This document shows positions 239 through 25,533 of a stretch of 64,000 nt of DNA, one piece after another. The notes beneath the pieces are model-generated. The model did no database searches and had not been told where the DNA came from. It saw only the letters and a program-made list of their open reading frames with translations. Positions within the stretch are counted from its first letter, which is position 1, and every line of letters begins with the position of its first letter. The stretch is from Candidatus Bathyarchaeia archaeon (lineage in GTDB: Archaea; Thermoproteota; Bathyarchaeia; Bathyarchaeales; Bathycorpusculaceae). The DNA is taken from positions 64,001 to 128,000 of the forward strand of contig JAVZLM010000003.1 in NCBI GenBank assembly GCA_038883775.1, written 5' to 3'. The translations under genes were made by a program, and so were the position numbers.

Positions 239-3200
239 ATGGATATTAAAGAGAAAAAAGCGTATAGTCTATTGTCTGTTCTACTGCTTCTCGTTAGCTT
301 CTTTGCAGCGGCAACGCCTGTGCTTAAAGCTCAAGCTCCTGAAACCGCCGTGAGGGTGTTTGTGAATGCGCCCTATCAGAGTGAGATGACCCTCGGCGAT
401 GGGGTTACTGATGTTAGAGGAACAATTATCAGCATTGCTGTGGTTGTTGAGGATGTTGAGAACCTTTATGGTTTTGACATTAGACTGAAATGGCCTATGG
501 AATACCTTGAATATGTTGACCACACGTTCACCATACCGTGGAATACGAGTCAAACGCCAATCGATCCAAGCCCCTATGCTGGCATTCTGTATGCGCCTGT
601 GTCCCCTGTGCCTGGTCATGGATTGCACTTGGATGTGGGAGAAATTTGGGCTGTTATGGCTTCGCAGGCTCCTGCGCCATCCTTTTACGGTGACGGAACG
701 GTTTTCGTTTTGAGGCTTAGATTGATTAAGCAGCAATACGCCTACGAGGGAGACGTTGAACTCGTTTTAAACATCACTACACATGACTTAGCCGGCAAAG
801 TGCCGCCAGGCCCGCTCATAATTCCACACACGGCATACAATGGACGAATAATCCTTAAGGGAAGGGCTTTTGCTTATCCGCCACTTCCACTTCTGAAAAT
901 ATTGCCAGAAACCATAAAAGACGTTAAACTCTGCGAGAACTTTGACATTAGTGTTTGGCTTATGGGTGAGGGCGGCGTTGACCTGGACCCATTCTGGGAC
1001 ATAAGCGGCTTCGACTTCACAGTAAACTTCAACTCAACCCTCCTAGAAGCAGTCGACGTCAAAATAGACCCAGCCAACTGGTGGCTAGGCTTCTACCCAG
1101 GCGGAGTCTGGACTACGGCAAAAGAAATTGACAATGTTACTGGAAGGGTTAGGATAGCCTTTATGGGTATACCTGACCCATCGCGGACTCCGCCACATGA
1201 TGCGCCACACGGGAAGGGCATCCTTGCCACAATAACCTTCCATGTCATCTACGAGTCTGAGAAGTATCCTCCGCCTTCTGCGCCCATATGGCTTGAAAAC
1301 CCGCTTCCACTAGCCCTCATAGACCTCTACAGCGAAAACGGCCTAATAAACCTCGGCAGCCCCGTATCAACAGACTGGCATGAAATCATGCCGGCATACT
1401 GTAAGCGTTTCGGCCTAACTTTCTGGGAGGATGTTGACGGCGACGGGCGCCTCAGCCCCAACGACCAAATCCGCCTCCTAAACAAAGAAACTGGCAAGTG
1501 GCTCCCCTACCGGGTCCACGCCGTCCCAGTAACCATGCGCGTTGACATCCTACCCTTCGAATACACAGACGAATACCACGAAGGCACAACAGCCTTCACA
1601 AACGCTTGGCCTCACCCAGGAATAGGCTCTTGGACTCCTCCAACGCCAATAACAGAGTATCCGCCTCCAGAAGGCTTCCCACCAGTTAATATATCCCTAA
1701 CCTATCTAGCCCAAGAAGTCCACAGCGTTGAAGTATTATTCCCCAACGGAACAAGAAGACTCCTCAACTACGGAACAGAATGGGACTACTACCCAGGAAC
1801 AAACCTAGTGGAAATAAAAATGATCCTTGGAACGCCAGAAACAGAATATTTCGTTGAAGACGTCAACATGACAACAGGCTGGGAAGGCTACGTACCCAAA
1901 GCAAGAGTCCTCTTAGACCCGCCGCCAACAGGTTGGATCCACCGCATAAGAGTCCAATTCCCAGAGGAAATACCGCCAGAATATCTAGACCTCTGGGATG
2001 GCTTCCAAGGCGAATACATAGAGCTTTTGCCATGGAAGATAAGTGGTGGATACCTATGGATGAACATGTGGGGCGAGCCAGGCTGGGACTATAACTGGGC
2101 TTATCACTACGCTCCAAACGTAGGCGTAGTAGCAATAGCTCCATGGGACAAGTTCCCGCCAGGCACAGAAGTTTGGATAGACTATTTTGCCCAGTCAACC
2201 CAAATATGGGTTAACTACACAGCCCTAGAACTAGAACCAAGATGGATTAAATCCGCAATAGGCGCAGCCGACTTCCCATTCACTGCACCATTAACAAGTG
2301 AATGGACAGAAATAATGCCGAATTTCGACAAAGAACATGTTATAACTGGCTGGACTGACACAGATGTTAACGGTCGCCTCAGCATAGGCGACATAATCCA
2401 ACTCTACGACGTGGAAACTGGCGAAACCAAACCCGCCAACATAACACTACTGGCAACAGGCCTAACCGTAATCCAAAAGCCCGTCATCTGCACCTTCGAC
2501 CTTGAAGACCCATTCTACGGCATGGTAGCCATAGTAGACGTGGCTGGCTTCCCCCACCCAGAAAGACCCATGTGCCCATGGCATAACCAACCCTACGCAG
2601 TCCCCATCCCCCACAAAACAGAACCAGCCACATACACAGCGCCTTTCAAGCCGCCAGGAAGATGGATAGACCTATACCTCTGGGGTATTGAAGCCTGCAA
2701 CGGAACAAGATGGGAATATGCAGACTTCGCCAAAGGATTAGGCCCCAACGAACCAGCCGACGCAGTTCAACCACAAGCAAAAGTGGTCCTCCGCGCCTTT
2801 GTAACCTACAACTTCCAGCCAATAGCAGGAAAATCAGTGACATTCGAACTCATATCCCCAACAGGAGAATTCCACATAATCAGAAGCGCCATAACAGGAG
2901 GCTGGGACACACCACTATACGGCATAGCTGAAGTAATAGTAACAATACCATGGCCATACCCAGACCCAGAAGGAAGAGTCTTCGGAACATGGAACGTCAT
3001 AGCCACAGTAGACATAGTAAAAGTAGTAATCAACGACACCCTAACCTTCAGATTAGGCTACCTAATAGACACAGTCTTCGTAATACCAGGCAAACAAACA
3101 TACCATAAAGGCGAACACATGAACTTCACCCTAACATACACAAGCATATCACACCAAATCCGCACAGCCTACTTCACAATAGTAGTCTACGACGAACTAG

Positions 3201-3400
3201 GCGTACCAATAGCATGGCAAATCCTAGGACCCTTCAACGTCACCTACGGCACCCACACCATAGTATTCGAATGCATGGAAGTACCCCACTGGGCATTCAG
3301 ATACAGATGCACGGCCTACGTCAACGCCCTAACAAGCCTGCCAACCCTCGGCGGAGCACAATACTGCCCAGAAATCTACGCAGTATTCGCAATAGAATAA
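239..3400 (+). CDS. Secreted scaffoldin-like protein: two cohesin-like domains, Ca-binding inserts and a C-terminal beta domain; no TM anchor
   Basis: Signal peptide. Cohesin-like patterns (ISIAVVVEDVENLYGFDIRLKW..LEYV; FDISVWL..ISGFDFTVNFNSTLLEAV..GKGILATITFHV). Two DxDxxGxLS loops. ATG 239 preferred over TTG 215 because GGAG lies upstream. Confidence 0.75.
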   Translation: MDIKEKKAYSLLSVLLLLVSFFAAATPVLKAQAPETAVRVFVNAPYQSEMTLGDGVTDVRGTIISIAVVVEDVENLYGFDIRLKWPMEYLEYVDHTFTIPWNTSQTPIDPSPYAGILYAPVSPVPGHGLHLDVGEIWAVMASQAPAPSFYGDGTVFVLRLRLIKQQYAYEGDVELVLNITTHDLAGKVPPGPLIIPHTAYNGRIILKGRAFAYPPLPLLKILPETIKDVKLCENFDISVWLMGEGGVDLDPFWDISGFDFTVNFNSTLLEAVDVKIDPANWWLGFYPGGVWTTAKEIDNVTGRVRIAFMGIPDPSRTPPHDAPHGKGILATITFHVIYESEKYPPPSAPIWLENPLPLALIDLYSENGLINLGSPVSTDWHEIMPAYCKRFGLTFWEDVDGDGRLSPNDQIRLLNKETGKWLPYRVHAVPVTMRVDILPFEYTDEYHEGTTAFTNAWPHPGIGSWTPPTPITEYPPPEGFPPVNISLTYLAQEVHSVEVLFPNGTRRLLNYGTEWDYYPGTNLVEIKMILGTPETEYFVEDVNMTTGWEGYVPKARVLLDPPPTGWIHRIRVQFPEEIPPEYLDLWDGFQGEYIELLPWKISGGYLWMNMWGEPGWDYNWAYHYAPNVGVVAIAPWDKFPPGTEVWIDYFAQSTQIWVNYTALELEPRWIKSAIGAADFPFTAPLTSEWTEIMPNFDKEHVITGWTDTDVNGRLSIGDIIQLYDVETGETKPANITLLATGLTVIQKPVICTFDLEDPFYGMVAIVDVAGFPHPERPMCPWHNQPYAVPIPHKTEPATYTAPFKPPGRWIDLYLWGIEACNGTRWEYADFAKGLGPNEPADAVQPQAKVVLRAFVTYNFQPIAGKSVTFELISPTGEFHIIRSAITGGWDTPLYGIAEVIVTIPWPYPDPEGRVFGTWNVIATVDIVKVVINDTLTFRLGYLIDTVFVIPGKQTYHKGEHMNFTLTYTSISHQIRTAYFTIVVYDELGVPIAWQILGPFNVTYGTHTIVFECMEVPHWAFRYRCTAYVNALTSLPTLGGAQYCPEIYAVFAIE
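948..1108 (+). repeat. 161-bp near-identical block shared with 7393-7553
   Basis: Direct comparison shows only about 3 mismatches. Further shared blocks at about 1265-1585 / 7710-8030 and about 2205-2640 / 8970-9400. Confidence 0.9.
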
Positions 3401-3433
3401 AACAATAAAAACTCAACCCACCCCCCTTTTTAT
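3401..3433 (+). terminator. Putative archaeal terminator (C-run then T-run)
   Basis: aacaataaaaactcaacccacccccctttttat directly after the stop. Similar tracts at 125-140, 10650-10680 and 16872-16908. Confidence 0.5.
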
Positions 3434-3489: not shown

Positions 3490-4479
3490 ATGCCTGAATA
3501 TACCAAAAATATGCCTATCAAAATTATCACAGTTTCCTTATTATTGTCCTTTTTGACAATAACCTTAGGCTGCGCCCAACTCGAGCCACTAAAAATAACC
3601 ATCGCCACTGACAAATCTACTTATCAATATAGGGAAATTGTAAACATATATGGAAACGTGACGTATGAAGGCGCTCCCGTGGAAAGGGGGTTAGTAGCGA
3701 TCAGTATAAGATATCCAAATGGTACAATAATAAGCGTGAGAACCGTTCCTGCCAAAAGCATCCCCTCAACTACTTGGAATGTTGGAATAACATCTTTTAT
3801 ATCTTGTGATCAAAATGGAAATCCAAAAAAGGACTTTAGGCGAGACTCTTTTGCATATTTTTATATGATCGCAAAAAACAATATTCCTTTTAGCTATACT
3901 GTTTTGCTCACAATTTCAGTTTATGATGTTGATCAAACTCCAATAGGAATCCTATGGCAAGGACCGGTTTCCGTGCCAGGTAATTCCGAAATTGGTTGGC
4001 TTATTGGAGTTTTAATCCCCACATGGGCGTCCACAGGAACCGGAAGGGCATACGCCAATGTGTACACAGATTGGCCGGAAAAAGGTGGTTACCCATATTG
4101 TCCAGAGTGGAACACTACTTTTAACATTGAACGTCAAACATCAATCCCAAATATTCCAAGTACAAACAATACTTACCAAGTATCATTTCGATTGCCCCCC
4201 TATGTACCTAGAGGCACATACCTAATTAATGTAAGCGCCTGGTATTCTGGATGGAAAGCTTTCCAATACACTACTTTCACGGTCGATTATAGGCTATTGG
4301 GAGACGTTGCCGAACCTTGGGGAATTATTAACGTATATGATGTGGTGATGTTAACATCCATATACGGCTCAAAAAGTGGCGATCAAAACTGGAATCCTGA
4401 ACTAGACTTAAATTCAGATGGCAAAATAGACATTTATGATGTTGTGATAGTAACTTCACAATATGGAACAAGATATTAG
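3490..4479 (+). CDS. Secreted protein with C-terminal dockerin
   Basis: Signal peptide. C-terminus LLGDVAEPWGIINVYDVVMLTSIYG..NWNPELDLNSDGKIDIYDVVIVTSQYG is a duplicated Ca-loop+helix (type I dockerin pattern). Confidence 0.8.
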   Translation: MPEYTKNMPIKIITVSLLLSFLTITLGCAQLEPLKITIATDKSTYQYREIVNIYGNVTYEGAPVERGLVAISIRYPNGTIISVRTVPAKSIPSTTWNVGITSFISCDQNGNPKKDFRRDSFAYFYMIAKNNIPFSYTVLLTISVYDVDQTPIGILWQGPVSVPGNSEIGWLIGVLIPTWASTGTGRAYANVYTDWPEKGGYPYCPEWNTTFNIERQTSIPNIPSTNNTYQVSFRLPPYVPRGTYLINVSAWYSGWKAFQYTTFTVDYRLLGDVAEPWGIINVYDVVMLTSIYGSKSGDQNWNPELDLNSDGKIDIYDVVIVTSQYGTRY

Positions 4480-4559: not shown

Positions 4560-4642
4560 CCTTCCTTAGTGTTTGAATGGAATTTAATTCCAAAATCTTT
4601 ATACGGTATCGCGCTCGATATTGTTATGGGAGAGGGGGAAAT

Positions 4643-6562
4643 ATGCAAAAAAGGAAAATTTTACAATTTTTGTTTTTCTTTCTGATGCTGATTATATGTT
4701 TTGTTTTCGAGGAAGTTTCGATATACGCTAAAGAAAGCGTTTCTTTTTCAGCTGAGAGTGAAAAGCCACTAGTTTATGTGGATCCGCCGGAGGTTCGAAA
4801 CTTGGCTGTTGGTAAAACTTTTACGATTAGTGTTAAAATCGCTAATGTTACAAACCTTTACGGCGTTGACATTGAGTTTCACTGGAACCCGACAATTTTA
4901 GAATATATGGAACATACTGTTTTGATTCCAGTGGACGATTATCCCGGCGGCGTTTTATATAAGCCCATTATGCCGATTGCAAATACGGTGAATGCCACTG
5001 GTGGAACATATAAGGTTGCTTATGCTTCCATGCTTCCTGCACCATCATTTGACGGAAGTGGAACAGTTTTCACGATGAAGTTTAAAGTGAAGAGCATAGG
5101 ACGCTCTTTATTGGACATTTATACGAGTGATTTGTCTGGAAAAGTTCCTCCGGGACCACTTATCATATACCATGATGTTCAAGATGGATACTTTTCTAAT
5201 TATGTTCCTTCGAAAGCGAAAATTTACATAAATCCTCCAAAAATAATAGATTCAACCTTAACGCCCACATCCAATTTCACAGTAAACGTAAACCTTGAAA
5301 ACGTAGTTGAATTTGACACCTTCGAATTTTGGATAAACTATAACACGACAATTTTAGACGCCTTTAATGTCACGGTTAACCCAACATTTCCAGCGGCACA
5401 AACCAATTTACAAATTATGGAAGCAGAAGGCAAAATTCGAACCAAAGCTTGGCTTCAACCAGCATCCCCACCCTACACGGGCAATCTAATGCTTGCGTCA
5501 ATAATATTTAAAGTGGCAGATATTGGCGCGAGCACTCTCGACTTGTATAATATTACGTTAGTGGATGCATGGAAAGAAAATATTCCATATCAAGAACCTG
5601 GAGACGGCTTTTTCAGTAACATGTTATTAACAAAGCTTTTTATTGATCCTAGCGAAATCATTGACCCCACGATACGTCCACCCATGACTTTCAATATTTA
5701 TGTTAAAGCTGAAAATGTTATGGATATGTATGGTTACGAGTTCAAACTATCTTATGATACAAACGTTTTAACTGCTTTAGGCGTTAGGATTCTTCCGCCA
5801 ACAAATGATACGAGCTTCACTGTTACTACAAGTATTGACGACCCATCGGGCTACATATGGATTAAAGTTCAATATTATCCGCCAGCCGTGCCCATCACTA
5901 TAACTTCCGCAAAAGCATTAGTGGAGTTGTTGTTCCAAGTTCAATCGTTAGGAGTTACCGTTCTCGACTTGCATGATGAGAGGCTTACAGACGTAAATGG
6001 CAACCAAATCCGCGTAGACGAGGTTGGAGATGGCTTCTTTATGTCTATTATAAGAAATGTTGCTATTTTAAATGCTACAGCCACTCCGAACAAAGTTTAT
6101 CCTGGAAGGATGGTTACAATAACTGTTTTGGTGAAAAACTTGGGCATTGGAATGAGTGAAACATTCAATGTGACCGTTTACTATGACAACAACCCGATTG
6201 CAACACAGATCGTCGCAGACCTTGCTCCCCAACACGAAACGACATTGACGTTTTTGTGGGATACCACCGGCTTACAGCCATGCAACAATTATACAATAAG
6301 GGCTGAAGCAAGCCAGGTTCCATTCGAGGTTAATTTGGAGGACAATATTTACTTTGATGGTTGGGTGAAAATTAAAATATGGGGCGATGTGGATGGCGAC
6401 GGAGATGTTGACATTTATGATATCGCCCTGGCGTCAGCAGCCTATGGAAGCCGTCCCGGAGATCCAAACTGGAATCCAGAGGCGGATGTTGCACCGGAAT
6501 GGGGCTTCATCAATATTTATGATATGGTGACAATTTCGTCTTATTATGGACAGACGTGTTAG
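4643..6562 (+). CDS. Adaptor scaffoldin-like protein: three cohesin-like domains, CARDB-like domain, C-terminal dockerin
   Basis: Three repeats of the (V/I)xPP..F(T/N)(I/V)x(V/I)..NV..YG.(F/E)..(W/Y)(N/D)..(I/V)L pattern. CARDB-like RNVAI..ITVLVKNLG..ETFNVTVYY. Dockerin WGDVDGDGDVDIYD..DVAPEWGFINIYD. ATG 4643 follows GGAGAGGGGG. Confidence 0.8.
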   Translation: MQKRKILQFLFFFLMLIICFVFEEVSIYAKESVSFSAESEKPLVYVDPPEVRNLAVGKTFTISVKIANVTNLYGVDIEFHWNPTILEYMEHTVLIPVDDYPGGVLYKPIMPIANTVNATGGTYKVAYASMLPAPSFDGSGTVFTMKFKVKSIGRSLLDIYTSDLSGKVPPGPLIIYHDVQDGYFSNYVPSKAKIYINPPKIIDSTLTPTSNFTVNVNLENVVEFDTFEFWINYNTTILDAFNVTVNPTFPAAQTNLQIMEAEGKIRTKAWLQPASPPYTGNLMLASIIFKVADIGASTLDLYNITLVDAWKENIPYQEPGDGFFSNMLLTKLFIDPSEIIDPTIRPPMTFNIYVKAENVMDMYGYEFKLSYDTNVLTALGVRILPPTNDTSFTVTTSIDDPSGYIWIKVQYYPPAVPITITSAKALVELLFQVQSLGVTVLDLHDERLTDVNGNQIRVDEVGDGFFMSIIRNVAILNATATPNKVYPGRMVTITVLVKNLGIGMSETFNVTVYYDNNPIATQIVADLAPQHETTLTFLWDTTGLQPCNNYTIRAEASQVPFEVNLEDNIYFDGWVKIKIWGDVDGDGDVDIYDIALASAAYGSRPGDPNWNPEADVAPEWGFINIYDMVTISSYYGQTC

Positions 6563-6683
6563 CCTAATTTTTTCCATGTTCTCAATTTTAGACTTTTTAT
6601 TTTCTTCCTTTAGGCTTAACTTAGTTAAAGATAGAAAAATTCAAATATTCATCGCTAAAATACATAGAGTCTGCGGTGAAAGA

Positions 6684-9600
6684 ATGATGAATAATTTATG
6701 GAAAAAACTGAGTAACTGCTTATGGATTTCGTTGATTATTTCAGCGATGCTTTTATCCAATGTTCATGTGATGGCAGGAAATGAATATTCAATTCAGCAG
6801 GCACCAACAAAAGTGAGGGTAATACCCTCGCCTATAGAATTTAAAGGAGGAAACGCTACAGGTCAAGAGTTTGATGTTGCGGTTGTTGTTGAAAATGTAA
6901 CCAACCTTTATGGCATTGATATCAATATGACCTGGGATATAACATACCTTGAGTATGTCAGCCACGAATTCACAATGCCAGTAACCGACTATCCAAATCC
7001 CATTCCTCCAAGCCCCTATCCAGGAATTTTAAATGGTCCATTAATAACCACCATCGAAGATGTTAACCCAACCGCAGGTTACATAAGAGTTGGTAAGGCT
7101 ACAATGGCCCAACCTCCGCCTCCATCATTCAACGGAAACGGCACAGTCTTTGTTGTTAAATTTAGAGTGAAATATCATCCGCAAGAAGCTGACACAGTGA
7201 CTTATCTACATTTGGCCTCAACAGATTTGGCTGGCAAAATGCCGCCTGGGCCTCTTATTATACCCCACGAGCGTCAAGACGGTGTAGTTATTTTACGCTC
7301 CTATTTTGAGTATCCACCAATGCCATTATTAGATTTGAGAATAAACGGAGATAAGGAATACAATGCTATAAGAATAGGCGAGCGCTTTAACGTTAGTGTT
7401 TGGCTTATGGGTGAGGGCGGCGTTGACTTGGACCCATTCTGGGACATAAGCGGCTTCGACTTCACAGTAAACTTCAACTCAACCCTCCTAGAAGCGGTCG
7501 ACGTCAAAATCGACCCAGCCAACTGGTGGCTAGGCTTCTACCCAGGCGGAGTCCAAGTCTTTGCGGAGTCTATTGATAACACAGTGGGCAGAGTTAAAAT
7601 AGCCTTCATCGGCTTGCCTGACCCAACGCAAACGCCGCCTCATGATCCTCCGAATGGTAAGGGTGTTTTAGCCATCGTGACTTTTCACGTTATTTATGAG
7701 TCTGAGACGTATCCTCCGCCTTCTGCGCCCATATGGCTTGAAAACCCGCTTCCACTAGCCCTCATAGACCTCTACAGCGAAAACGACCTAATAAACCTCG
7801 AAACTCCAGTCTCAACAGACTGGCATGAACTCACCCCCACATACTGCAAACACTTCAATGTTACTTTCTGGGAGGATGTTGATGGCGACGGGCGCCTCAG
7901 CCCCAACGACCAAATCCACCTATTAGACAAAGAAACAGGCAAGTGGCTTCCCTACCGGGTCCACGCCGTCCCAGTAACCATGCGCGTTGACATCCTACCC
8001 TTCGAATACACAGACGAATACCACGAAGGAACAACAATATTCACCAACACGTGGCCGCCATATCATGCGCTTCTAAGTGGGCTAAAGCTTGATCCCGCGT
8101 ATCCCGTTATAACTTGGCCGCCAACATACGTTCCAGTGAACCTTACGCTGTCTTATGCAGCTTTGGACGTAAGCTCCGTTGAGGTTGAATTTCCAAATGG
8201 TACAAGAAGGCTGTTAACCGAAAACACTGAATGGGAATGGTTCTACGGGTCAGATCAACTTGAAATCAAAATACCGCTTGGCGTGCCAAAATCCTGCGCC
8301 TTCGTTGAGGGCGTCAACATGACAACAGGCTGGGAAGGCTACGTTCCGAAAGGCAGAGTTATACTCCCAGACCAAACAACAGGCTGGATTCACCGATTCG
8401 TCGTCACACCAGTCAAAGACAGAATAGACCTTTACGTAACCATAGTTGACAGCGCCGAATTTAATGTCACAAGAACCTATGCCATATACCTCAACGAAAC
8501 ACTAATAGAAACAGGAGAGCTAACCTATCTTGGAGAGCCAATAGAGCTATACACGGTCATAAATGACATAGACCCCGGATACTACGTCTTAAACTTCACC
8601 TTAGACAGTCCAGACGACAAACCATGGAGCGTAGAAATTTATGGAGCACTTTTCTACTCATATGAGGACGAATTCTACACAGAAGGCAACGTAACGATAT
8701 CATCTCCACTAACAGTCGATTTCACTGCGGATCCACCAACCTTAACCGTGCTTCCATTAGGCGAGCGGGGCGGCTACCTATGGATGAACATAGATGCTGA
8801 TGGAGACGGCGACGCTGAACCAGGATGGTACTGGAACATGGGATACGACTATGCCCCAAACAACCCAGTTGTTGCCATCGCCCCAACATGGACTGGAACA
8901 GAACCAACAGACAGATTCCCGTTAGGAACAGTTGTTACAATAGATTATATGGCTGAATGCACAAAAATGTGGGTTAACTACACAGCCATCGAGCCTACTA
9001 AATGGATTAAATCCGCAATAGGCGCAGCTGACTTCCCATTCACTGCACCATTAACAACCGAATGGAAAGAACTAATGCCATATCCAGACAAGCAACATGT
9101 TATAACTGGCTGGACTGACACAGACGGCAACCACCGCCTAAGCATAGGCGACATAATCCAACTCTACGACGTGGAAACTGGCGAAACCAAACCCGCCAAC
9201 ATAACACTACTGGCAACAGGCCTAACCGTAATCCAAAAACCAGTCATCTGCCTCGCCGACACATCAGACCCATTCTACGGCCAAGTAGCAATAGTGGACG
9301 TGGCCGGCTTCCCCCACCCAGAAAGACCCATGTGCCCATGGCACAACAAAGCCTACTCAGTCCCCATCCCCCACAAAACAGAACCAGCCACATACACAGC
9401 GCCCACACGGGGACCAATAGCGAATTTCACTTATACCCCAAGCGAACCAGTGCAATTTGAAGAAATAACATTCGACGCTTCTCTAAGCTATTCTCCAGCT
9501 AACAAGACAATTGTCAGTTATGTTTGGGATTTTGGTGACGGTTCTCCAGTTGTTGTTGAATCGGATCCAATAACAACCCATGCATACCTCAGTTCAGGAG

Positions 9601-10649: not shown

Positions 10650-10753
10650 CCTTCAACACCCCACTTTTATTTTTCAATTTTTTAACTCTTAAATAAGAAA
10701 AGCTTAAAAATTAAGCTTCAACATAGTGGTAACACAAATTGCATGGTGAAAAC

Positions 10754-13990: not shown

Positions 13991-14386
13991 ATGTTTCATA
14001 AAAAATTGTATAAGTGGATTTGTTTAATTTTAGGTTTTGTGGGAATGATTAATGTGGCTACTGTGGGGCTTTATTTGGTTGTAACATGCCTTAGTTTGTC
14101 TCCTTTTCCAGGGGGCGAACATTTTCTTTTTTATGCTTATGCGGCAGCTATTTTAGCGGTTGTTTCCATGTTGCTTCTGGTTTGTGGTATTTGCTTGATG
14201 TGGAGAGGGCGTTTGCGGATGGGAGGCGCATTTAATTTTTTTGCTGGAGTATTTTTTGTTTCCTTTTACTTTTACTTTTCATTTTTTTCTCAACCGTCGA
14301 TGCTTGGATGGTTTTGGCCTTTTGGTTGTTTGCTTTTTCTTCCATTATTTTTGAGTGGCGTTATTGGAATGTTTGTTAAAGGTTAA
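13991..14386 (+). CDS. Hypothetical four-TM membrane protein
   Basis: 131 aa with four hydrophobic segments. GGAGG-like SD upstream. Confidence 0.65.
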   Translation: MFHKKLYKWICLILGFVGMINVATVGLYLVVTCLSLSPFPGGEHFLFYAYAAAILAVVSMLLLVCGICLMWRGRLRMGGAFNFFAGVFFVSFYFYFSFFSQPSMLGWFWPFGCLLFLPLFLSGVIGMFVKG

Positions 14387-14420: not shown

Positions 14421-14434
14421 AGAAAACCTTAAAT
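14421..14434 (+). promoter_or_regulatory. BRE-TATA promoter of the solute-binding protein gene
   Basis: agaaaaccttaaat. Near-identical aaaccttaaata at 16915-16926 and 20026-20037; related boxes at 181-194 and 10696-10710. Confidence 0.55.
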
Positions 14435-14480
14435 GGCAATTCGCGTTACAATAGTTTTTGAGAGAAAGGAGAAAGAGGTT

Positions 14481-16958: not shown

Positions 16959-17951
16959 ATGGGCTTCAAAACCTACCTAGTTAAAAGGACCATATATAGC
17001 CTAGCACTTTTATGGGCTATAATGTCAGTAAACTTCATAATCTTCTCCCTTATACCAGGAGACCCAATCGGCAGATGGGTTAAAAACCAAGAGGCAGCCA
17101 TATCAAAAGAAGAAATAATGGAGTTAAGGCGAATCTACGGGCTGGATATGCCACTCCACGAAAGATACTTCTTGTATCTTCAAAACATGTTAACATGGAA
17201 CTTTGGAAGATCACGATACACACAAGCAGACATAAAAACAGACATAATGAATAGACTTGGAAACACCCTCTTACTCTTGGGAATAGCAGACGGCTTCACA
17301 ATATTTGCCGGAACATTGTTAGGCGTATTAGTTGCATACAAAAGAGGCTCAAAATTAGACACAGCATTAGTCACAGCCTCCCTAGGCACATACAGCCTAC
17401 CAGTCTTCTGGTTAGGATGGCTAATACTCTTCTTTTTCGCCATATACCTAAAATGGTTCCCAGTTGGGGGAATATACCCAGCCGAATGGATGAAACAGTG
17501 GCCCACAAGCATAGTAGAAATAATTGCTGGAAGACTGAAACACATAGTCCTCCCAGTTTTAACCCTTTTCATCTTTAACGTAGGCGGATGGCTACTATTA
17601 ACAAGGTCATGCGTACTCGAAGCCATAACCGAAGACTACGTAGTAACAGCAAGGGCAAAGGGATTAAGCACAAGAAAAGTCTTGTTAAACCACGTCTTAA
17701 GAGTTGCATCCCTACCAATCGTCACATCTCTAGCTTTAACATTAGCTGGACTTTGGAGCGGCGCAATTGTAACCGAAACCGTTTTCAGTTATGAGGGAAT
17801 GGGAAGGTGGATTTGGAGGGCCATCGGATTACAAGACATACCAATCATGTACGTTGTTTTCTACATATCCGCCCTCACAATAATCATTGCCAACTTCATG
17901 GCAGACCTCATTTATGGAGTATTAGATCCAAGAATAAGAGTCGGGGGATAA
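16959..17951 (+). CDS. oppB: Oligopeptide ABC transporter permease
   Basis: YGLDMPLHERY, DYVVTARAKGL EAA loop, ETVFSYEGMG, LDPRIR. Confidence 0.93.
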   Translation: MGFKTYLVKRTIYSLALLWAIMSVNFIIFSLIPGDPIGRWVKNQEAAISKEEIMELRRIYGLDMPLHERYFLYLQNMLTWNFGRSRYTQADIKTDIMNRLGNTLLLLGIADGFTIFAGTLLGVLVAYKRGSKLDTALVTASLGTYSLPVFWLGWLILFFFAIYLKWFPVGGIYPAEWMKQWPTSIVEIIAGRLKHIVLPVLTLFIFNVGGWLLLTRSCVLEAITEDYVVTARAKGLSTRKVLLNHVLRVASLPIVTSLALTLAGLWSGAIVTETVFSYEGMGRWIWRAIGLQDIPIMYVVFYISALTIIIANFMADLIYGVLDPRIRVGG

Positions 17952-17953: not shown

Positions 17954-19573
17954 ATGGCCACATACAAAGAGAGAGCAGCCTTCACACTTAAAAGACTAAA
18001 AAATTTCTGGAGGGATTTCTCCAGAAGCAAAAGAGGAGTCCTAGGAGTTGTCATCATACTATTCTACATTATAGTAGCCTTAATAGGTCCACTATTCATA
18101 ACAATTGACCCCCTCTTTCCAACAATGCCAGGATACTACCCAGCAGGCCCAGCTCCAATAGCTGATGTTCTATGCAAACCCACATGGTACAAGTACTTTC
18201 CAGGCAGAAGCGGCATGTCAGAAAACATGAAGTTAATATCAGATCACGAGTTCTCCTCAATCAAAGCAATGGAGGCTTGGGATCAAAAGACTAACGCTCC
18301 AAACTTAATAAGCTATGCATATAACCCAACAGCGGGATCCCACAACAACGACGGATGCATCGAAATATCCTATAACCGCCCAGCCGATTACACTAGCACT
18401 GAAACACCATACCTTCAAATAACCCACAACTTTACCTATCCATACCAGGAAAGCCCAAGAAAATTCTGGATACACCTCTCCTTCCTCCTCAACGGCACAA
18501 TAACAAGGGAAAGTTACGTGTCAATAGAAGTATCATTTTACAGAATTCAAACCCCCCCACCGCCATTAAATTATACGTACCCAAGTTCTCTAACAACGTA
18601 CATAGACTCATTAATAATTTACAAATACCCACTACATAGCATAAATACAACTAGTCCCTCCGCAACCTGGACTCACATGTGGATCACCTCAACCAGAGAC
18701 AGCATAATGTACGATCCAAAATACTACCTCAAACCATGCGCCATCATATTTCCAACATCAGGCAATTACACATTTGAAATTAAAGTAAGCTTTTACGACA
18801 CAGCAACCACTGAAAGAGAAATAAAAGTTTATCTCGACAATTTAGACGTGCTAATTTACGGAGAAGCCTACGGCATACTCGGAACAGACTATAAGACAGG
18901 AGGCCCAAGAGACAACCTAATATCCCTCGTATACGGCGCAAGAATCTCAATATTCGTCGGTTTACTCGCAACCTTTATCTCCGTCAGCCTCGGCTTACTC
19001 GTAGGATTAACAGCAGGATACGTTGGAGGATTAGGCGACGAAGCACTAATGAGACTTGCAGACTTCCTCATGTGCCTCCCAGGCTTGCCATTATATATTG
19101 TGCTGATGGTAGTCTTAGGAAGCTCCATATGGAACGTAATATTACTCATGTCCTTCCTTGGATGGATGGGTTTCTCACGCCAAATAAGATCCATGACCCT
19201 ATCATTACGCGAAAGAGCCTTCGTTGAAGCCGCCAAGGCCGCCGGAGCAGGCAAAGTCTGGATCCTATTTAAGCATATTCTCCCAAACGTCTTCGCGCTA
19301 GTTTACATAGCATTAGCAGTTTCAGTTCCAGGAGTTGTATTAACAGAAGCAACATTAAGTTGGCTCGGACTATTCGATCCAAAACAAATATCATGGGGAA
19401 GAATGCTTCACGAATTCTCCCAAGCAGGTGTTGCAGTTGCAAGAGGCATCGAAGATTACTGGTTCTGGGTGATTCCACCAGGCATAGCCATCGCCTTATT
19501 AGCGATAGCCTTCGTGTTGCTCGGCTACTCTTTAGATGAAATATTAAATCCCAAGCTTAGAGTAAGACGTTAA
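17954..19573 (+). CDS. oppC: Oligopeptide ABC transporter permease with a large extracellular insert
   Basis: LGTD..LVYGARISI, FVEAAKAAGA, HILPN, SWGRML, LDEILNPKLR. About 230 aa insert after TM1. Start at MATYKE. Confidence 0.9.
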   Translation: MATYKERAAFTLKRLKNFWRDFSRSKRGVLGVVIILFYIIVALIGPLFITIDPLFPTMPGYYPAGPAPIADVLCKPTWYKYFPGRSGMSENMKLISDHEFSSIKAMEAWDQKTNAPNLISYAYNPTAGSHNNDGCIEISYNRPADYTSTETPYLQITHNFTYPYQESPRKFWIHLSFLLNGTITRESYVSIEVSFYRIQTPPPPLNYTYPSSLTTYIDSLIIYKYPLHSINTTSPSATWTHMWITSTRDSIMYDPKYYLKPCAIIFPTSGNYTFEIKVSFYDTATTEREIKVYLDNLDVLIYGEAYGILGTDYKTGGPRDNLISLVYGARISIFVGLLATFISVSLGLLVGLTAGYVGGLGDEALMRLADFLMCLPGLPLYIVLMVVLGSSIWNVILLMSFLGWMGFSRQIRSMTLSLRERAFVEAAKAAGAGKVWILFKHILPNVFALVYIALAVSVPGVVLTEATLSWLGLFDPKQISWGRMLHEFSQAGVAVARGIEDYWFWVIPPGIAIALLAIAFVLLGYSLDEILNPKLRVRR

Positions 19574-19576
19574 ACC

Positions 19577-19957
19577 TTAACCTTTACTCAAAGAATCTAT
19601 TTTTTCATCTAAAAATCTCCAAAAATCATCCTCAATTTTTTCCAAAGCCTCTAAAGACTTCAAACCTTTCGATAAAAACCATCCACCGCCCAAAAATGAT
19701 GTCAACCAGCCAAACTTAACAAACGAACGAGAACGCCTTCCAGCCTCAAAAACCACCAAGAAATCATCAGGTTTCCCTCTAATAAAAACTTCAATGTGTT
19801 CGCATAAGTCATGAATGCGCCTAGGAGCTGCTGTAATCTTATACTCTTCCGATGAACACTGCATATTCGTCAAAAAACCCCTATGCTTAAAGAAACCCTC
19901 TAAAACTTCACACAGCAACTTTAAGTTAATATTTTTTCGAATCCACCGACTCTGCAT
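19577..19957 (-). CDS. Hypothetical protein
   Basis: 126-aa ORF filling the oppC-oppD gap on the opposite strand. GAGG upstream. Confidence 0.65.
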   Translation of the reverse strand: MQSRWIRKNINLKLLCEVLEGFFKHRGFLTNMQCSSEEYKITAAPRRIHDLCEHIEVFIRGKPDDFLVVFEAGRRSRSFVKFGWLTSFLGGGWFLSKGLKSLEALEKIEDDFWRFLDEKIDSLSKG

Positions 19958-20110: not shown

Positions 20111-21073
20111 ATGGAATTACTTAATGTCAACAACTTAAAAACTTACTTTTTCACACTGAGTGGTGCAGTGAAGGCTGTAGACGGCGTAAATTTTGTAATT
20201 GAAAAAGGAGAAGCAATGGGGTTAGCCGGAGAATCCGGTTGCGGAAAAACCACAGTAGCCCTATCGCTTTTAAGAATTCTTCCACCAGGAGGAAAAATTG
20301 TTGGCGGAAAAATCCTATTCAAAAACTTAAACATAGTCGACTTAGATGAAAGTGATCTGCGGAATAAGGTAAGATGGAAAGGAATTTCTTTAATATTCCA
20401 AGGAGCAATGAATGCGCTTAACCCCGTCCACAGGGTAAAGGACCAAATTATAGAAGCAATAAAGTTACACGAACCGCATGTAACAAAGGATGAAGCTAAA
20501 GAAAGAGTTTTAAAACTCTTTGAAATGGTAGGTTTAGATCCTTCAAGGGTTAACAGTTATCCTCATGAATTAAGTGGAGGAATGAAGCAGCGTGCCATGA
20601 TAGCAATGGCTCTAGCGTGCAACCCCGAACTTTTGATAGCGGATGAACCTTCAACAGCATTAGACGTTATAGTTCAAGCTCAAGTCCTCCAACTTATAAA
20701 GCATTTAAAAGAAAAACTACAGTTATCCATGATACTTATATCTCATGATCTGTCAATTGTTGCCGAAACATGCGATAAAGTGGCTATTATGTATGCGGGA
20801 AAAATAGTAGAATACGGAGATGTCAAAACACTTTTCGAGGAACCTCTACATCCATACGCACAAAGTTTGATAAAGGCCTTTCCACACATTAAAGAAGCTA
20901 AGACCCGCTTAATTTCTATACCAGGCGCTCCCCCAGATCTAATAAATCCTCCCACTGGTTGTCGATTCCACCCCAGATGCAGTTATAGTATGGAAATTTG
21001 TAAGAAAAAAGAACCGCCTATGATAAATGTTAAGGGTAACGCGCATTACGTAAGTTGTCACCTTATTGGTTAA
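20111..21073 (+). CDS. oppD: Oligopeptide ABC transporter ATPase
   Basis: GESGCGKT, YPHELSGGMKQR, IADEP, C-terminal GCRFHPRC..C..VSCHL. Confidence 0.95.
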   Translation: MELLNVNNLKTYFFTLSGAVKAVDGVNFVIEKGEAMGLAGESGCGKTTVALSLLRILPPGGKIVGGKILFKNLNIVDLDESDLRNKVRWKGISLIFQGAMNALNPVHRVKDQIIEAIKLHEPHVTKDEAKERVLKLFEMVGLDPSRVNSYPHELSGGMKQRAMIAMALACNPELLIADEPSTALDVIVQAQVLQLIKHLKEKLQLSMILISHDLSIVAETCDKVAIMYAGKIVEYGDVKTLFEEPLHPYAQSLIKAFPHIKEAKTRLISIPGAPPDLINPPTGCRFHPRCSYSMEICKKKEPPMINVKGNAHYVSCHLIG

Positions 21074-21093: not shown

Positions 21094-22089
21094 ATGAGCG
21101 AAACAATAGTTAAAGTAGTAAATTTGAAAAAATGGTTTCCTGTAAAATTGGGTTTCTTTAAAACATTAGTTTCCCGCAAGCAACTTTATGTTCGCGCGGT
21201 AGACGGCATAAACTTAGAAATAAAAAAGGGAGAAATTTTTGGACTTGCAGGCGAAAGTGGGAGTGGAAAGACCACTACAGGACGGTTACTTGTTAAACTT
21301 ATTGAACCAACATCCGGACAAATTTTCTTTGGTGATAAAGATGTAACTAACCTTCCAGAAAGCCAATTTAAGCCTTTCCGTCAAAAAATACAAATAATTT
21401 TCCAAGATCCATATGAGTCGCTTAATCCTAGAATGACAATTTTTGACATTATAGCTGAACCTTTACGCCTTCAAGCTGGTTTAAGCGGATCTGAACTTGA
21501 TGAAAAAGTTTTCAAAGTCTTAACCGACGTAGGTTTAGTTCCGCCTCATGAGTTCATTTTTAGATTCCCCCACGAGTTAAGCGGAGGACAAAGGCAACGA
21601 GTGGCTACGGCGAGAGCTTTATCGCTGAGTCCAGATTTCATAGTTGCTGACGAACCAGTGTCAATGTTAGATGTATCTATCAGAGCAGAAGTTTTAAATT
21701 TAATGTTCGATTTAATGAAGAAGTACCATGTGTCTTTCCTTTACATCACACATGATTTAGCATTAGCTCGACACATCTGCGACGAAATAGCTATAATGTA
21801 TCTTGGTAAAATCATGGAAAAGGGACCTACAGAAAAAGTCATTTATGAACCTTTGCATCCCTACACAAAAGCCCTAATATCAGCTGTTCCTGTTCCTGAC
21901 CCATCATCAAAACGAGCGGAAATAGTGATAAAAGGAGAAATTCCAAGTCCAGTTAACCCACCCCCAGGCTGCAGATTCCACACAAGATGTCCAGAATACA
22001 TTGGCGACGTGTGTAGAACAAAAGAGCCAACGCTTATAAATGTGGGAAAGGCTCATTATGTTGCATGCCATTTATACTCTAAACCTTAA
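21094..22089 (+). CDS. oppF: Oligopeptide ABC transporter ATPase
   Basis: GESGSGKT, FQDPYESLNPR, LSGGQRQR, VADEPVSMLDVS, GCRFHTRC. Confidence 0.95.
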   Translation: MSETIVKVVNLKKWFPVKLGFFKTLVSRKQLYVRAVDGINLEIKKGEIFGLAGESGSGKTTTGRLLVKLIEPTSGQIFFGDKDVTNLPESQFKPFRQKIQIIFQDPYESLNPRMTIFDIIAEPLRLQAGLSGSELDEKVFKVLTDVGLVPPHEFIFRFPHELSGGQRQRVATARALSLSPDFIVADEPVSMLDVSIRAEVLNLMFDLMKKYHVSFLYITHDLALARHICDEIAIMYLGKIMEKGPTEKVIYEPLHPYTKALISAVPVPDPSSKRAEIVIKGEIPSPVNPPPGCRFHTRCPEYIGDVCRTKEPTLINVGKAHYVACHLYSKP

Positions 22090-22366: not shown

Positions 22367-22458
22367 AAAATAAAAAGGTTTCTCTTCTACTTTTAGTGCA
22401 TTTACCTCAAGAATAAAATATTAATTGTTCTTATTATATTATAACATTTATTGAAAAT

Positions 22459-25400
22459 ATGGAGATGAAGGAACTGAATATCAAGATAGCAATTTTAGTA
22501 ACGCTGCTAACTTTCCTGACATTAACATTAAATGGCATAAGCGTAATAGAGGGGCAATGCGTAAACCAGGCGTCGCTCGAATGGAATCAAAGAGACCTTG
22601 AACGGATTCTTGATCAACAAGACCGGTTGAAAAAAATTGCCTATGTGAAAAACGACCTTGTCAGGTTGGTGTTGGGAGTTGATGCTCAAGTTTCATATAG
22701 CTATTTTAAGCTGGAAAAAGTTGTTGCCGCTTATAGTGGGCGCATAGTTAATTTAATCTCGATGAACAGCGAAGTTAAAGCAGTAACTGTTGAAATTCCA
22801 ATAAAGCGCTCTTCGATTTTTATGAGTGAAATAACTGAAAAAAAGATGGCAAAGTTTATTGAGCCTAACTTTAAATTTCAATGTCAGTTTGTTCCAAATG
22901 ATCCTTATTGGACACTGCAGTGGGGACCGCAAAAAATAGAAGCTCCTTGGGCATGGAACATAACAGTAGGTGACCCCTCAGTTCTTGTGGCGGTTGTGGA
23001 TACTGGAATAGATTATTCCCATCCAGATCTAGCTGCTAACTATGTCGCCCTTGGCAGGGATTGGGTGAACGGTGACCCGGATCCCATGGATGATGAGGGA
23101 CATGGAACACATTGTGCAGGCATAATAGCCGCTGTATTAAATAACGGCATCGGCATCGCCGGGGTGGCTAAAATTAAAATAATGGCTGAGAAAGGTCTTG
23201 ATAGAACAGGATCCGGATACACAGATTGGCTTGCGAATGCCATCATTCACGCTGTAGAAAAAGGTGCCAAAATTATAAGCATGAGCTGGGGAGGATACTA
23301 CCACAGCAAACTAATTTATGAAGCAATTAAATATGCTTATGATTCTGGCGTGCTTTTAGTGGCGGCCGCAGGTAACGATCGAGTAAATGCAAAACTATTC
23401 CCTGCGGGTTATAATGAAGTTATAGCCGTTGCGGCAACAGACGATTACGATAATGTTGCTTCATGGTCCAACTTCGGCGATTGGATTGAATTGTCAGCGC
23501 CGGGAGTGCAGATTTATTCTACTTATCCAAGAAATAATTATGTGTATTTAAGTGGGACTTCGATGGCGGCGCCGCATGTAAGTGGTGTTGCAGCTTTAAT
23601 TTGGAGCCAATTTCCAGAAAAAAGCAGAGACTGGGTGAGGATACGTTTACGATACACTAGCGATGACATCAGTTTTCCAGGTTATGATATTCGTTCTGGT
23701 TATGGAAGAATTAACGCAAGAAAAGCTGTTGAGCAGCCTCTGTTAAATCATGATTTAGCCTTTTACGATTGGGAGTTTCCTCCTTATGTAGAACCAGGAA
23801 GCACGGCAACGGTTAATTTTACAGTGTTGAATTTTGGAGCGCAAAACGAATACGATGTAACTATACAGCTGTTAATAGAGGGAGCCCTCACAAACTTTAC
23901 CGTTATAAGCTTCATTGCTAATGGTACATCTGAAACAGCAAGTGTTAAATGGAACCCAGTTACAAAAGGAAATTATAACGTCACTTTATATTTGGTTCCC
24001 GTATCTGGCGAATTTTCCATCCAAAATAACAGAGTTACAAAATTTGTTTATGTAGATTTTCCAAGAAAAGCTTTGGTTCTAAGTTCAGAAGGGAATGTTT
24101 TAAGTTTTGTCACCCGCAATTGGGATGAGTTAAATGCGAAATGGTCTTCCTTTGGAGATAACATGATCTACATTGATTATACAACTTTAAACAAAGAAGA
24201 CATAACGTACGAAGAGATTGCAACTACAAACGCAGACGTTTTAATAATTTCGAGTGCATGGACTTCCGAGTATGGATGGGAATTTACAGATTCAGAAATA
24301 GACGCTATAAAGAGATACGTGCTTGAAGGACACGGATTAATAGTTACGGAAGCTACATTTTATCATCCAGTTCAAAACAATGTTAAGTTAGCTTCGCTGT
24401 TAGGGTTAAACGACTCGTTAATCTGGAATTATACAACAGCCACCTCTCTCAATCTGATAGAACCTAGCCATCCGCTTCTACGTGGAATCCCAAATCCCTA
24501 TTCTTTTCCGGAAGTAACAACTATGATTTCTTTAGACGGTTTATGGGATGACAATGAGTTAGAAGGCGGCAAATATATTGCGCTGGGAAGCAATAAGAAA
24601 ACTGCAATAGTTGTCTCTGAACGTGGCCGCGTTTATATTTCGCCTTATCTTGAAAGTATAGATCCATCAGCAAGTCAGAATCATCTAAAGTTACTTTACA
24701 ACGCCATTACATGGTCACCTCATGAACTTTCGGTATCATTGGATGCGCCAAATTATCATCCTTTAGGCGAATCATTGCTGCTTAATGCAACAGTTCATAA
24801 CATTGGATCCGTAAATGAAACAAATGTTCTTTTGCAATTGATTATTAATGGTTCAACAGTCTGTTCCGCAGTTATTGCAGAGTTAAAAAGCAATTCTTCT
24901 TATACGATAAGCTACTTATGGACGCCGGAAGAGGGCGAATACAATGTTACAGCTTATGCTGCTCCAGTAAAAGGCGAGACTTTTAAAATCAACAATACTG
25001 AAACGAAAATTGTCAAGATATCGCGTTTTCGTGATGTGGCGGTGTTTAACATTTCAGCTCCGAATGCGGCTTATAAAGGAAGTATTGTAAAAATCGAAGT
25101 TTTGGCAGGAAATTTGGGAGAACTCAGCGAAACCTTTAATGTTACCGTATACTGTGACTATACACTTATAGCCACGCTTCCTGTGGTAGACTTACTCCCA
25201 AAACAAAATATAACATTAACACTTTGGTGGAACACTTCAGCGTTAACACCTTGTCATACGTATAATATTTGGGCTGAAGCAACATCGGTTTCAGGTGAGG
25301 TTAACATAGAAAATAATGTTTTCATTGGGGTGCAAGTGAAGATTAAAATGCTTGGAGATGTAAATGGAGATGGTAACATTAACATTTACGATGTTGTGTT

Positions 25401-25533
25401 GGTCGCGTCAATTTATGGATGCAAAGAAGGAGATCCCAACTGGAATTCAGAAGCCGACTTGGCTCCACCATGGGGATTAATCAACATATATGACATTGTA
25501 GTAATAACCTCCGTATATGGGCAAAAATGTTAA
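22459..25533 (+). CDS. Secreted subtilisin (S8, thermitase-like) with CARDB domains and C-terminal dockerin
   Basis: Triad VAVVDTGID / HGTHCAG / GTSMAAPHVSG, oxyanion AAGND, propeptide, three CARDB-like units. Dockerin LGDVNGDGNINIYD..ADLAPPWGLINIYD. Confidence 0.92.
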   Translation: MEMKELNIKIAILVTLLTFLTLTLNGISVIEGQCVNQASLEWNQRDLERILDQQDRLKKIAYVKNDLVRLVLGVDAQVSYSYFKLEKVVAAYSGRIVNLISMNSEVKAVTVEIPIKRSSIFMSEITEKKMAKFIEPNFKFQCQFVPNDPYWTLQWGPQKIEAPWAWNITVGDPSVLVAVVDTGIDYSHPDLAANYVALGRDWVNGDPDPMDDEGHGTHCAGIIAAVLNNGIGIAGVAKIKIMAEKGLDRTGSGYTDWLANAIIHAVEKGAKIISMSWGGYYHSKLIYEAIKYAYDSGVLLVAAAGNDRVNAKLFPAGYNEVIAVAATDDYDNVASWSNFGDWIELSAPGVQIYSTYPRNNYVYLSGTSMAAPHVSGVAALIWSQFPEKSRDWVRIRLRYTSDDISFPGYDIRSGYGRINARKAVEQPLLNHDLAFYDWEFPPYVEPGSTATVNFTVLNFGAQNEYDVTIQLLIEGALTNFTVISFIANGTSETASVKWNPVTKGNYNVTLYLVPVSGEFSIQNNRVTKFVYVDFPRKALVLSSEGNVLSFVTRNWDELNAKWSSFGDNMIYIDYTTLNKEDITYEEIATTNADVLIISSAWTSEYGWEFTDSEIDAIKRYVLEGHGLIVTEATFYHPVQNNVKLASLLGLNDSLIWNYTTATSLNLIEPSHPLLRGIPNPYSFPEVTTMISLDGLWDDNELEGGKYIALGSNKKTAIVVSERGRVYISPYLESIDPSASQNHLKLLYNAITWSPHELSVSLDAPNYHPLGESLLLNATVHNIGSVNETNVLLQLIINGSTVCSAVIAELKSNSSYTISYLWTPEEGEYNVTAYAAPVKGETFKINNTETKIVKISRFRDVAVFNISAPNAAYKGSIVKIEVLAGNLGELSETFNVTVYCDYTLIATLPVVDLLPKQNITLTLWWNTSALTPCHTYNIWAEATSVSGEVNIENNVFIGVQVKIKMLGDVNGDGNINIYDVVLVASIYGCKEGDPNWNSEADLAPPWGLINIYDIVVITSVYGQKC

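Follow-up and report, generated by a model that had tools for sequence, protein, structure and literature searches.

Multi-cohesin scaffoldins with a dockerin of their own, cohesin-bearing anchoring proteins and cargo proteins with C-terminal dockerins are the features that the bacterial cellulosomes (A. cellulolyticus ScaA/ScaB, C. thermocellum CipA/SdbA, Pseudobacteroides cellulosolvens) share with the locus described here. It occupies positions 215-25533 of the plus strand in a 64,000-nucleotide stretch of DNA from a Candidatus Bathyarchaeia archaeon (contig JAVZLM010000003.1, positions 64,001 to 128,000; hereafter the window) and combines cohesin and dockerin genes with those of an Opp-type ATP-binding cassette (ABC) importer. 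The solved cohesin nearest to its modules is the type II dyad 3l8q of ScaB from A. cellulolyticus. Unlike the cellulosomes, the locus belongs to an archaeal host, has a transporter binding protein as client, lacks glycoside hydrolase cargo and a carbohydrate-binding module (CBM) on the scaffoldin, and is anchored via C-terminal transmembrane (TM) helices rather than SLH or sortase. Its dockerins differ as well, with one degenerate calcium loop in the proteins B, C and M and two in G (Table 1). Judged from its predicted domains, the locus lacks the glycoside hydrolase cargo and the cellulose-binding CBM scaffoldin that define a cellulosome, whereas the scaffoldin hierarchy is present in its architecture.

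Outside the bacteria, the cohesin-dockerin pair of Archaeoglobus fulgidus reportedly binds in experiments; it is archaeal and non-cellulosomal like our locus, but consists of single modules with no multi-cohesin scaffoldin, and we know of no transporter context for it. The reuse of a cohesin-dockerin scaffold beyond cellulose is documented by the amylosome of Ruminococcus bromii (PMC4611034) and by mucinolysomes (PMC12997984), which, according to the available parts of these sources, differ from the locus in being bacterial, in their glycoside hydrolase cargo and in having no docked part of an ABC importer. The best archaeal precedent is provided by the ANME archaea, in which cohesin and dockerin domains were counted (Timmers et al. 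2017, PMC5244752, in its available part) and which harbor proteins with one dockerin and up to five cohesins as well as dockerins on substrate-binding proteins (SBPs) of the NikA/OppA and TroA types (Chadwick et al. 2022, PMC9012536, in its available part). These reports make outdated the view of a preliminary description of the window that archaeal cohesins and dockerins lack a clear function. Dockerin-bearing multi-cohesin proteins, dockerin-bearing SBPs and the missing link to cellulose are common to both cases, and the available portion of the ANME account presents domain inventories rather than synteny or hierarchy (PMC9012536). The locus differs in its bathyarchaeial origin, in the conserved cluster with TM-anchored cohesin proteins beside opp genes, in position-specific cohesin classes and in a dockerin-tagged S8 protease. 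The literature searched, with subscription journals mostly outside it, contained no paper on a cohesin-dockerin system of Bathyarchaeia.

On balance, we lean towards the reading that the locus encodes a conserved docking system of the bathyarchaeial cell surface, whose conserved client is an SBP without membrane anchor and whose modules are predicted to bind one another. The cohesin assignment is based on several lines of comparison. A module-by-module scan with Pfam Cohesin (PF00963; curated cut-off 24.1 bits) recognized C1 (43.5 bits), C2 (30.4), D1 (27.7) and E1 (25.3), while C3 (22.4), A2 (15.8) and D2 (15.4) fell below the cut-off and A1 gave no hit. A1 nevertheless matches C1 in phmmer (3e-23), and the A2/D2 type, taken with six orthologues, aligns to 24 C-type cohesin sequences (hhalign 98.4%, E 8e-15) and has cohesins as both of its top PDB matches (5lxv, 0.0011; 3l8q, 0.0057). 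The profile of all eight modules retrieved 15 PDB sequences at E≤0.001, each of them a cohesin-bearing chain of a scaffoldin or of C. perfringens NagJ (best 3l8q, 1.4e-19). Weak and strong modules alike are, as judged from these profiles, true members of the cohesin family. The preliminary description had counted about eight cohesins in four secreted proteins (2+3+2+1) and had named generic immunoglobulin (Ig) domains as the alternative for the repeats: exactly eight were recovered by Pfam, phmmer, hhalign and custom hidden Markov models (HMMs), and the profiles match cohesin chains alone.

The structural model of protein C is compatible with this assignment. In its AlphaFold2 (AF2) prediction from 70 homologues (mean predicted local distance difference test, pLDDT, 89), three modules made up of beta strands are accompanied by a CARDB domain and a tail of two helices. 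C alone was modelled among the cohesin proteins, and each of its cohesin modules has about 9-11 DSSP strands, the Pfam cohesin fold being a nine-stranded beta-sandwich jelly-roll with a length of ~140 aa. A whole-chain Foldseek search placed the 3l8q dyad second (1e-15) and 4fl4 and 3kcp near the top; long Ig arrays score alike, and since such a search cannot separate the two, the family call rests on the sequence profiles.

The phylogeny of 65 cohesin modules shows position-specific clades that are kept across species. Class I (96/98) comprises A1, D1, C1, E1 and modules of the anchors, with copies homogenized within genomes, while modules two and three of C (the latter 100/97) and the A2/D2 type (100/99) each form a clade of their own. 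On the DNA level, stretches of A and D are 81-96% identical (933-1108 vs 7378-7553 and 2242-2541 vs 9002-9301), and D and E contain internal repeats with 99% identity (11720-11857 vs 12002-12139; 13370-13503 vs 13652-13785; 9509-9587 vs 9785-9863). These similarities suggest recent duplication or gene conversion among the scaffold genes, which fits the within-genome homogenization of class I.

In type I dockerins, two segments are arranged in tandem, and in each of them a 12-residue EF-hand-like calcium loop (DxDxDG...D) precedes a helix. The C-terminal tails of B, C, G and M show the two-segment layout and two helices (H591-599 and H625-633 in the model of C), and their loops have decayed to different degrees: the first loop is canonical and the second degenerate (A-P-x-W-G) in C and M, the reverse applies to B, and G has lost both canonical loops and kept both I-Y-D-V-V helices. 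All 13 retrieved homologues of G retain the two-segment tail. The scores for Pfam Dockerin_1 (PF00404; cut-off 22.9 bits) are 20.9 for B, 17.1 for C and 21.1 for M, and G gave no hit. The four tails match each other in pairwise BLASTP (5e-16 to 7e-7; 43-62% identity), just as the preliminary description had noted their similarity, and orthologous tails clear the cut-off (45.3 bits in locus L008, 49.1 in L057, 58.2 in L035). In an alignment of 44 members (A4), whose consensus displays two canonical DxNxDG loops, 30 are recognized by Dockerin_1 with E≤0.001; at this threshold, its profile has 28 PDB matches, every one a dockerin-bearing chain, the closest being B. cellulosolvens Cel48 (2y3n_B, 1.6e-17) and the type II dockerin of CipA (2b59_B, 1.2e-14). 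The hhalign match of the G tail to A4 (99.7%) was not counted because the alignment includes G itself; independent support comes from the pairwise BLASTP comparisons. Taken together, the profiles support membership of the tails in the dockerin family. The HMM check proposed earlier thus yielded four of eight cohesins above the Pfam cut-off and dockerin tails below it that are tied in by profiles. Among 625 six-frame open reading frames (ORFs) of the 64 kb, custom HMMs, which were built from locus sequences so that their positive matches there are given by construction, brought up neither an additional cohesin (best remaining E 0.98) nor an additional dockerin (best remaining E 5.7).

The organization of the locus is summarized in Table 1. 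All long ORFs between 215 and 29252 are located on the plus strand, with oppBCDF among the cohesin and dockerin genes as initially described. A hydropathy scan showed that A, B, C, D, E, G and M each carry a signal-like hydrophobic segment at the N-terminus. C-terminal TM helices with basic tails are restricted to D and E among the cohesin proteins, in agreement with the two anchors recognized before, and also occur in the neighbouring protein N; G possesses the N-terminal segment alone, with neither TM nor lipid anchor. A has no membrane anchor and no dockerin; its C-terminal domain is similar to that body of B which is related to MG2-like domains of relatives (MG2 55.8 bits in L036 and 27.1 bits in L015; Atlas lead 0.87). 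The middle region of A (~430 aa), with two EF-hand-like loops of DVDGDGRLSPND type, has a counterpart in D; the common parts (A 1352-1654 and ~2290-2540) match no Pfam family and gave no usable ESM Atlas hit, and their EF-hand-like module was rejected as a dockerin (6% hhalign probability against dockerins). The small membrane protein F has no relative among the 78 related loci described below. In the Pfam search, none of the window's cohesin and dockerin proteins showed a glycoside hydrolase, polysaccharide lyase or CBM family, and the earlier statement that the locus has no recognizable glycoside hydrolase holds, although N carries a CBM96/DNRLRE domain.

Table 1. Coordinates of the features in the window and, in the last four rows, of subtilases in related loci
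Feature	Position (nt)	Strand	Description
A	215-3400	+	Secreted protein with two cohesins
A1	~353-844		Cohesin
A2	~890-1408		Cohesin
B	3490-4479	+	Small secreted protein, function unassigned
B dockerin	4273-4476		C-terminal
C	4577-6562	+	Adaptor scaffoldin; likely start M23 (nt 4643)
C1	4769-5206		Cohesin
C2	5219-5626		Cohesin
C3	5630-6052		Cohesin
C CARDB	6071-6307		
C dockerin	6356-6559		
D	6546-10649	+	Anchoring scaffoldin; A-like middle region, 2 PKD domains
D1	6807-7313		Cohesin
D2	7332-7853		Cohesin
D TM helix	10572-10628		C-terminal, followed by KKK
E	10739-13933	+	Anchoring protein; CARDB, one cohesin, 3 PKD, 2 Big_3_5
E1	11198-11647		Cohesin
E TM helix	13856-13912		C-terminal
F	13991-14386	+	Small multi-pass membrane protein, role unassigned
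G	14433-16871	+	Family-5 SBP; signal peptide
G dockerin	16668-16856		Divergent tail
oppB	16959-17951	+	OppB-type permease
oppC	17954-19573	+	OppC-type permease of 539 aa; start M50 in an ORF beginning at 17807
OppC insert	18089-18943		Between TM1 and TM2
Antisense ORF	19577-19957	-	126 aa, no family; fills the 537-bp oppC-oppD gap
oppD	20111-21073	+	ATPase, oligo_HPY C-terminal domain
oppF	21094-22089	+	ATPase, oligo_HPY C-terminal domain
M	22459-25533	+	Secreted S8 subtilase; 3 CARDB
M catalytic domain	22978-23706		
M dockerin	25327-25530		C-terminal
N	25626-29252	+	TM-anchored surface protein; CBM96/DNRLRE, PKD, Ig, seven InlB B-repeat domains
O	29301-30254		After N
Lrp/AsnC regulator	30507-31040	-	Downstream of the cluster
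CbiM and NikR	35349-36524		Co/Ni uptake (CbiM)
tRNA	42062-42171	-	Rfam, 110 nt, 45.7 bits
Rpb2-type subunit	42486-45860		RNA polymerase, 1124 aa
Rpb1-type subunit	45862-49683		RNA polymerase, 1273 aa; domains 1-5 in one ORF
Giant S8 subtilase, L012	4571-10963		
Giant S8 subtilase, L016	4580-10957		
Giant S8 subtilase, L032	1918-8481		
Giant S8 subtilase, L062	2480-8404		

Our scan of species-representative genomes retrieved 78 related loci (numbered with the prefix L), 69 of which are labelled as Bathyarchaeota/Bathyarchaeia. Homologues of three locus proteins likewise carry the name Candidatus Bathyarchaeota/Bathyarchaeia in their sources. Custom HMMs located dockerin ORFs in 62 of these loci (107 ORFs) and cohesin ORFs in 40 (92 ORFs), and the family of C comprises at least 190 clusters of proteins with ~620-640 aa. 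The synteny expected by the preliminary description is present: the order of an A-like gene (two cohesins and the middle region), a B-like and a C-like gene followed by one or more genes for TM-anchored cohesin proteins recurs in L001 to L008. Opp permease genes adjoin the cluster in all five assessable orthologous loci (L001, L003, L005, L006, L008); the contigs of L002, L004, L007 and L011 end at the cluster, which places them outside this count. The corresponding number is seven among the 69 other loci (Fisher p 5e-5), a comparison set that consists of dockerin-related loci and not of random genes. The link between the cluster and the Opp importer is conserved. In L006, a small gene for a TM-anchored protein with a single cohesin is located within the opp operon, flanked by oppD and oppC. 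The permease-adjacent SBP has a dockerin tail in L001, L005, L006 and L058, while the custom HMM found no dockerin on the SBP of L008. In the dockerin tree, which is rough owing to its 61 columns, the SBP dockerins form a clade of their own among the relatives of the window (98/97).

The five transporter genes have the composition of an ABC importer of the Opp/Dpp/Nik (PepT) family, i.e. two permeases (BPD_transp_1 129 and 95 bits; OppC_N 31.6), two ATPases (ABC_tran with oligo_HPY 75.5 and 65.7) and a family-5 SBP (SBP_bac_5 49.3), as judged from their Pfam domains. NCBIfam places permeases and ATPases in the same family below every equivalog cut-off and gave no hit for G. Taken by itself, G shows hardly any match to solved SBPs; the profile of its family finds the oligopeptide binder AppA (1xoc, 2e-22) best, followed by a mannoside binder (4pfu, 6e-18), the nickel binder NikA (4oer) and a chitin-oligosaccharide binder (1zty, 8e-16). 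Peptide uptake is plausible, and the substrate is not fixed because the closest solved proteins bind peptides, nickel or oligosaccharides. The family of G also looks circularly permuted: positions 35-332 of its profile align to ~211-478 of classical SBPs and 393-545 to 8-154, and relatives show SBP_bac_5 positions 140-365 at the N-terminus and 1-155 at ~aa 470-640. Pfam recognized nothing in the second half of G, and a local comparison of G with the L008 SBP, which has the classical order, gave too weak a signal for a decision on the permutation.

OppC contains an extracytoplasmic insert of ~276 aa that is common to 18 bathyarchaeial homologues. Its AF2 model is a beta jelly-roll (pLDDT 90.6; predicted template modelling score 0.88) with CBM61 (2xom, 4e-6) as the best Foldseek match, followed by CBM4, CBM16, CBM11 and CBM27, and the agreement is modest (TM-score 0.4-0.6, ~10% identity). 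A hidden cohesin was considered for the insert and rejected: no cohesin HMM matched it, and no cohesin is found among Foldseek ranks 1-50.

The range of dockerin cargo was determined in two censuses, one of the 107 dockerin ORFs of the related loci (Pfam, E≤1e-5) and one of 43 hand-picked representatives with a single C-terminal dockerin out of 150 listed global matches, excluding multi-dockerin rows, four proteins below 200 aa and one of 5661 aa. The underlying global dockerin profile matched 60,097 clusters at E≤0.001; it is not lineage-specific, and its top matches are multi-dockerin proteins. Peptidases account for 8 of 107 (four S8, two M14, a thermopsin and a C39-like protein) and 2 of 43 proteins (S8 and C39-like), SBP_bac_5 proteins with Pfam-significant dockerins for 6 and 5, and NosD/beta-helix proteins for 11 (one shared with M14) and 8. 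LamG domains were found in one and five proteins, respectively. PQQ-type propellers (8 of 107), BNR (2) and MG2 proteins (2) were not seen among the 43, and many of the 107 have CARDB or PKD domains only. Cohesin and dockerin occur together in 41 of 107 (custom HMMs) and 7 of 43 proteins. Glycoside hydrolases are absent from both sets. The docking system looks like a general display device with SBPs and peptidases as regular clients in the minority. A separate observation concerns giant secreted S8 subtilases (~1975-2190 aa; Table 1), which combine several CARDB domains with one cohesin and a dockerin at the C-terminus and are enzyme and scaffold at once; the one in L012 lies within 10 kb of an opp operon.

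The architecture suggests a hierarchical scaffold on the outer side of the membrane, which would be built from the anchored D and E, the free A and the adaptor C with its own dockerin. Exoproteins with a dockerin tag would attach to this scaffold by Ca-dependent cohesin-dockerin contacts, and the client that travels across species would be the family-5 SBP of the adjoining Opp-type importer. Because G has a signal peptide and no TM or lipid anchor, we propose that its dockerin stands in for the membrane anchor that archaeal SBPs otherwise need. In the genome of the window, the thermitase-like S8 endopeptidase encoded right after the transporter could bring proteolysis and product capture onto one scaffold. 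With respect to the cellulosome-like hierarchy claimed at the outset, anchors, adaptor and dockerin cargo are borne out by architecture, and its remaining parts stay conditional.

Several points weigh against a docking system with the SBP as client. Mutual binding of the modules, the pairing of particular dockerins with particular cohesins and a peptide substrate are what we infer from the sequences of the locus. All four dockerins of the window score below the Pfam cut-off, and that of the proposed client G lacks both a hit and canonical calcium loops. The cohesins of D and E are N-terminal in proteins of ~1000 aa and lie far from the TM helix in sequence; the route from a docked SBP to the permease is unexplained, as is the place of A, with neither anchor nor dockerin, in the scaffold. 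In the rough 61-column tree, the dockerins of distant genomes cluster by genome and not by cargo, which argues against a fixed pairing code. Finally, OppC proteins of at least 474 aa (L005, L006, L058 and the window) go with dockerin-bearing SBPs, and those of at most 390 aa (L008, L028, L045, L072) occur without them. The OppC insert could offer a site for docking, as an alternative or in addition, or act as a ligand-binding ectodomain.

A bolder version of the docking system, which we put forward tentatively and hold to be rather doubtful, is an 'uptake-some' in which at least four position-specific cohesin classes place SBP, MG-domain protein and hydrolases, among them an S8 protease, in a fixed arrangement above the importer, thereby coupling breakdown and import. 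It may include a dockerin-anchored and apparently circularly permuted SBP, a permease with a jelly-roll ectodomain and the replacement of lipid or TM anchors by a dockerin as a general archaeal solution.

The preliminary description had gone further in another direction and proposed a dedicated 'peptidosome', whose scaffold digests extracellular protein and feeds the peptides to Opp and which is defined by protease and SBP as clients. The window itself makes this attractive: S8 protease, SBP and oppBCDF are co-directional neighbours, protease and SBP bear related dockerins, and M scores 202.8 bits with Peptidase_S8 (PF00082), has a catalytic domain close to the broad-specificity thermitase (1thm, 2e-72) and contains DTGID, HGTHCAG and GTSMAAPH, the D/H/S motifs of the S8 catalytic triad. 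The best solved relative of the SBP family, AppA, binds oligopeptides, the two cargo censuses contain recurrent peptidases and no glycoside hydrolase, and an Lrp/AsnC regulator follows the cluster both here and in L008, where it is accompanied by an N-like gene. Comparison among loci points the other way. A peptidase in or beside the cluster is present in just three of ten loci, the window (S8 with dockerin) included, the others being L001 (M14 carboxypeptidase with dockerin, within the cluster) and L004 (an S8 that directly follows the anchors and is incomplete at the end of the contig); a large protein of L002 is truncated and unclassified. No additional peptidase came from a Pfam search of 53 further, otherwise unannotated neighbours across 12 loci, and an S8 protease with a detected dockerin beside opp genes is found only in the window among the assessed orthologous loci. 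The protease is not a conserved member of the cluster. Most dockerin cargo is non-proteolytic, with beta-helix/NosD-like proteins, PQQ-type propellers, BNR and LamG proteins, and the transporter misses the equivalog cut-offs, with binders of mannosides, Ni and chitin oligosaccharides as next-best SBP matches. We consider a dedicated proteolytic system plausible for the genome of the window but less likely than not. The Opp link of the original proposal is conserved, and peptidases and SBPs recur as cargo; peptide specificity is not established, and the cargo is mostly of other kinds.

The acquisition of glycans or other polymers, with an importer of oligosaccharides, a scaffold that shows carbohydrate-active or carbohydrate-binding proteins and an incidental protease, is unlikely. 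Some archaeal and Thermotoga systems of the Opp family import oligosaccharides, the mannoside and chitin-oligosaccharide binders rank among the solved SBP relatives, and beta-helix, BNR and ConA-like/LamG proteins are cargo elsewhere. N has CBM96/DNRLRE with 124 bits; it carries neither cohesin nor dockerin. The CBM-like jelly-roll of OppC is a match on the fold level only, and the same fold is present in MAM, ephrin and gingipain adhesin domains; moreover, carbohydrate-active Pfam families are missing from the cohesin and dockerin proteins of the window, whose sole dockerin-bearing enzyme is a protease. Least probable is that the pairs merely organize the envelope or attach cells or particles and that opp adjacency reflects co-regulation of envelope proteins: this would suit the abundance of CARDB, PKD and Ig-like domains, the MG2-like B, the many dockerin proteins of relatives with such domains alone and the adhesion roles put forward for ANME in the available parts of two studies (PMC5244752, PMC9012536), but it leaves both the dockerin on an otherwise anchorless SBP and the opp adjacency in five of five loci unexplained.

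Bathyarchaeia are among the most abundant archaea of anoxic sediments and have barely been cultured; they are widely thought to live on buried organic matter including detrital protein. The cluster provides defined and testable parts for holding enzymes and a transporter SBP at their cell surface. Binding of the pairs would carry the scaffoldin principle over from polysaccharide degradation in bacteria to nutrient capture in archaea, would show that a dockerin can substitute for the membrane anchor of an ABC-importer SBP, and would supply protein engineering with several orthogonal archaeal cohesin-dockerin pairs. Should they fail to bind, the many annotations of cohesins and dockerins in archaeal metagenome-assembled genomes would have to be re-read.

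The remainder of the window contains several features of separate interest (Table 1). CbiM and NikR represent a separate metal-uptake module about 10 kb downstream of the locus, and nothing in the present data ties it to the Opp-type system. An L7Ae and a NusA-KH protein are also encoded in the window and, with the RNA polymerase genes, mark it as archaeal. The tRNA gene identified by Rfam was not reported by ARAGORN and probably contains an intron. Most archaea split the largest subunit of the RNA polymerase, whereas the polymerase genes of the window are unsplit.

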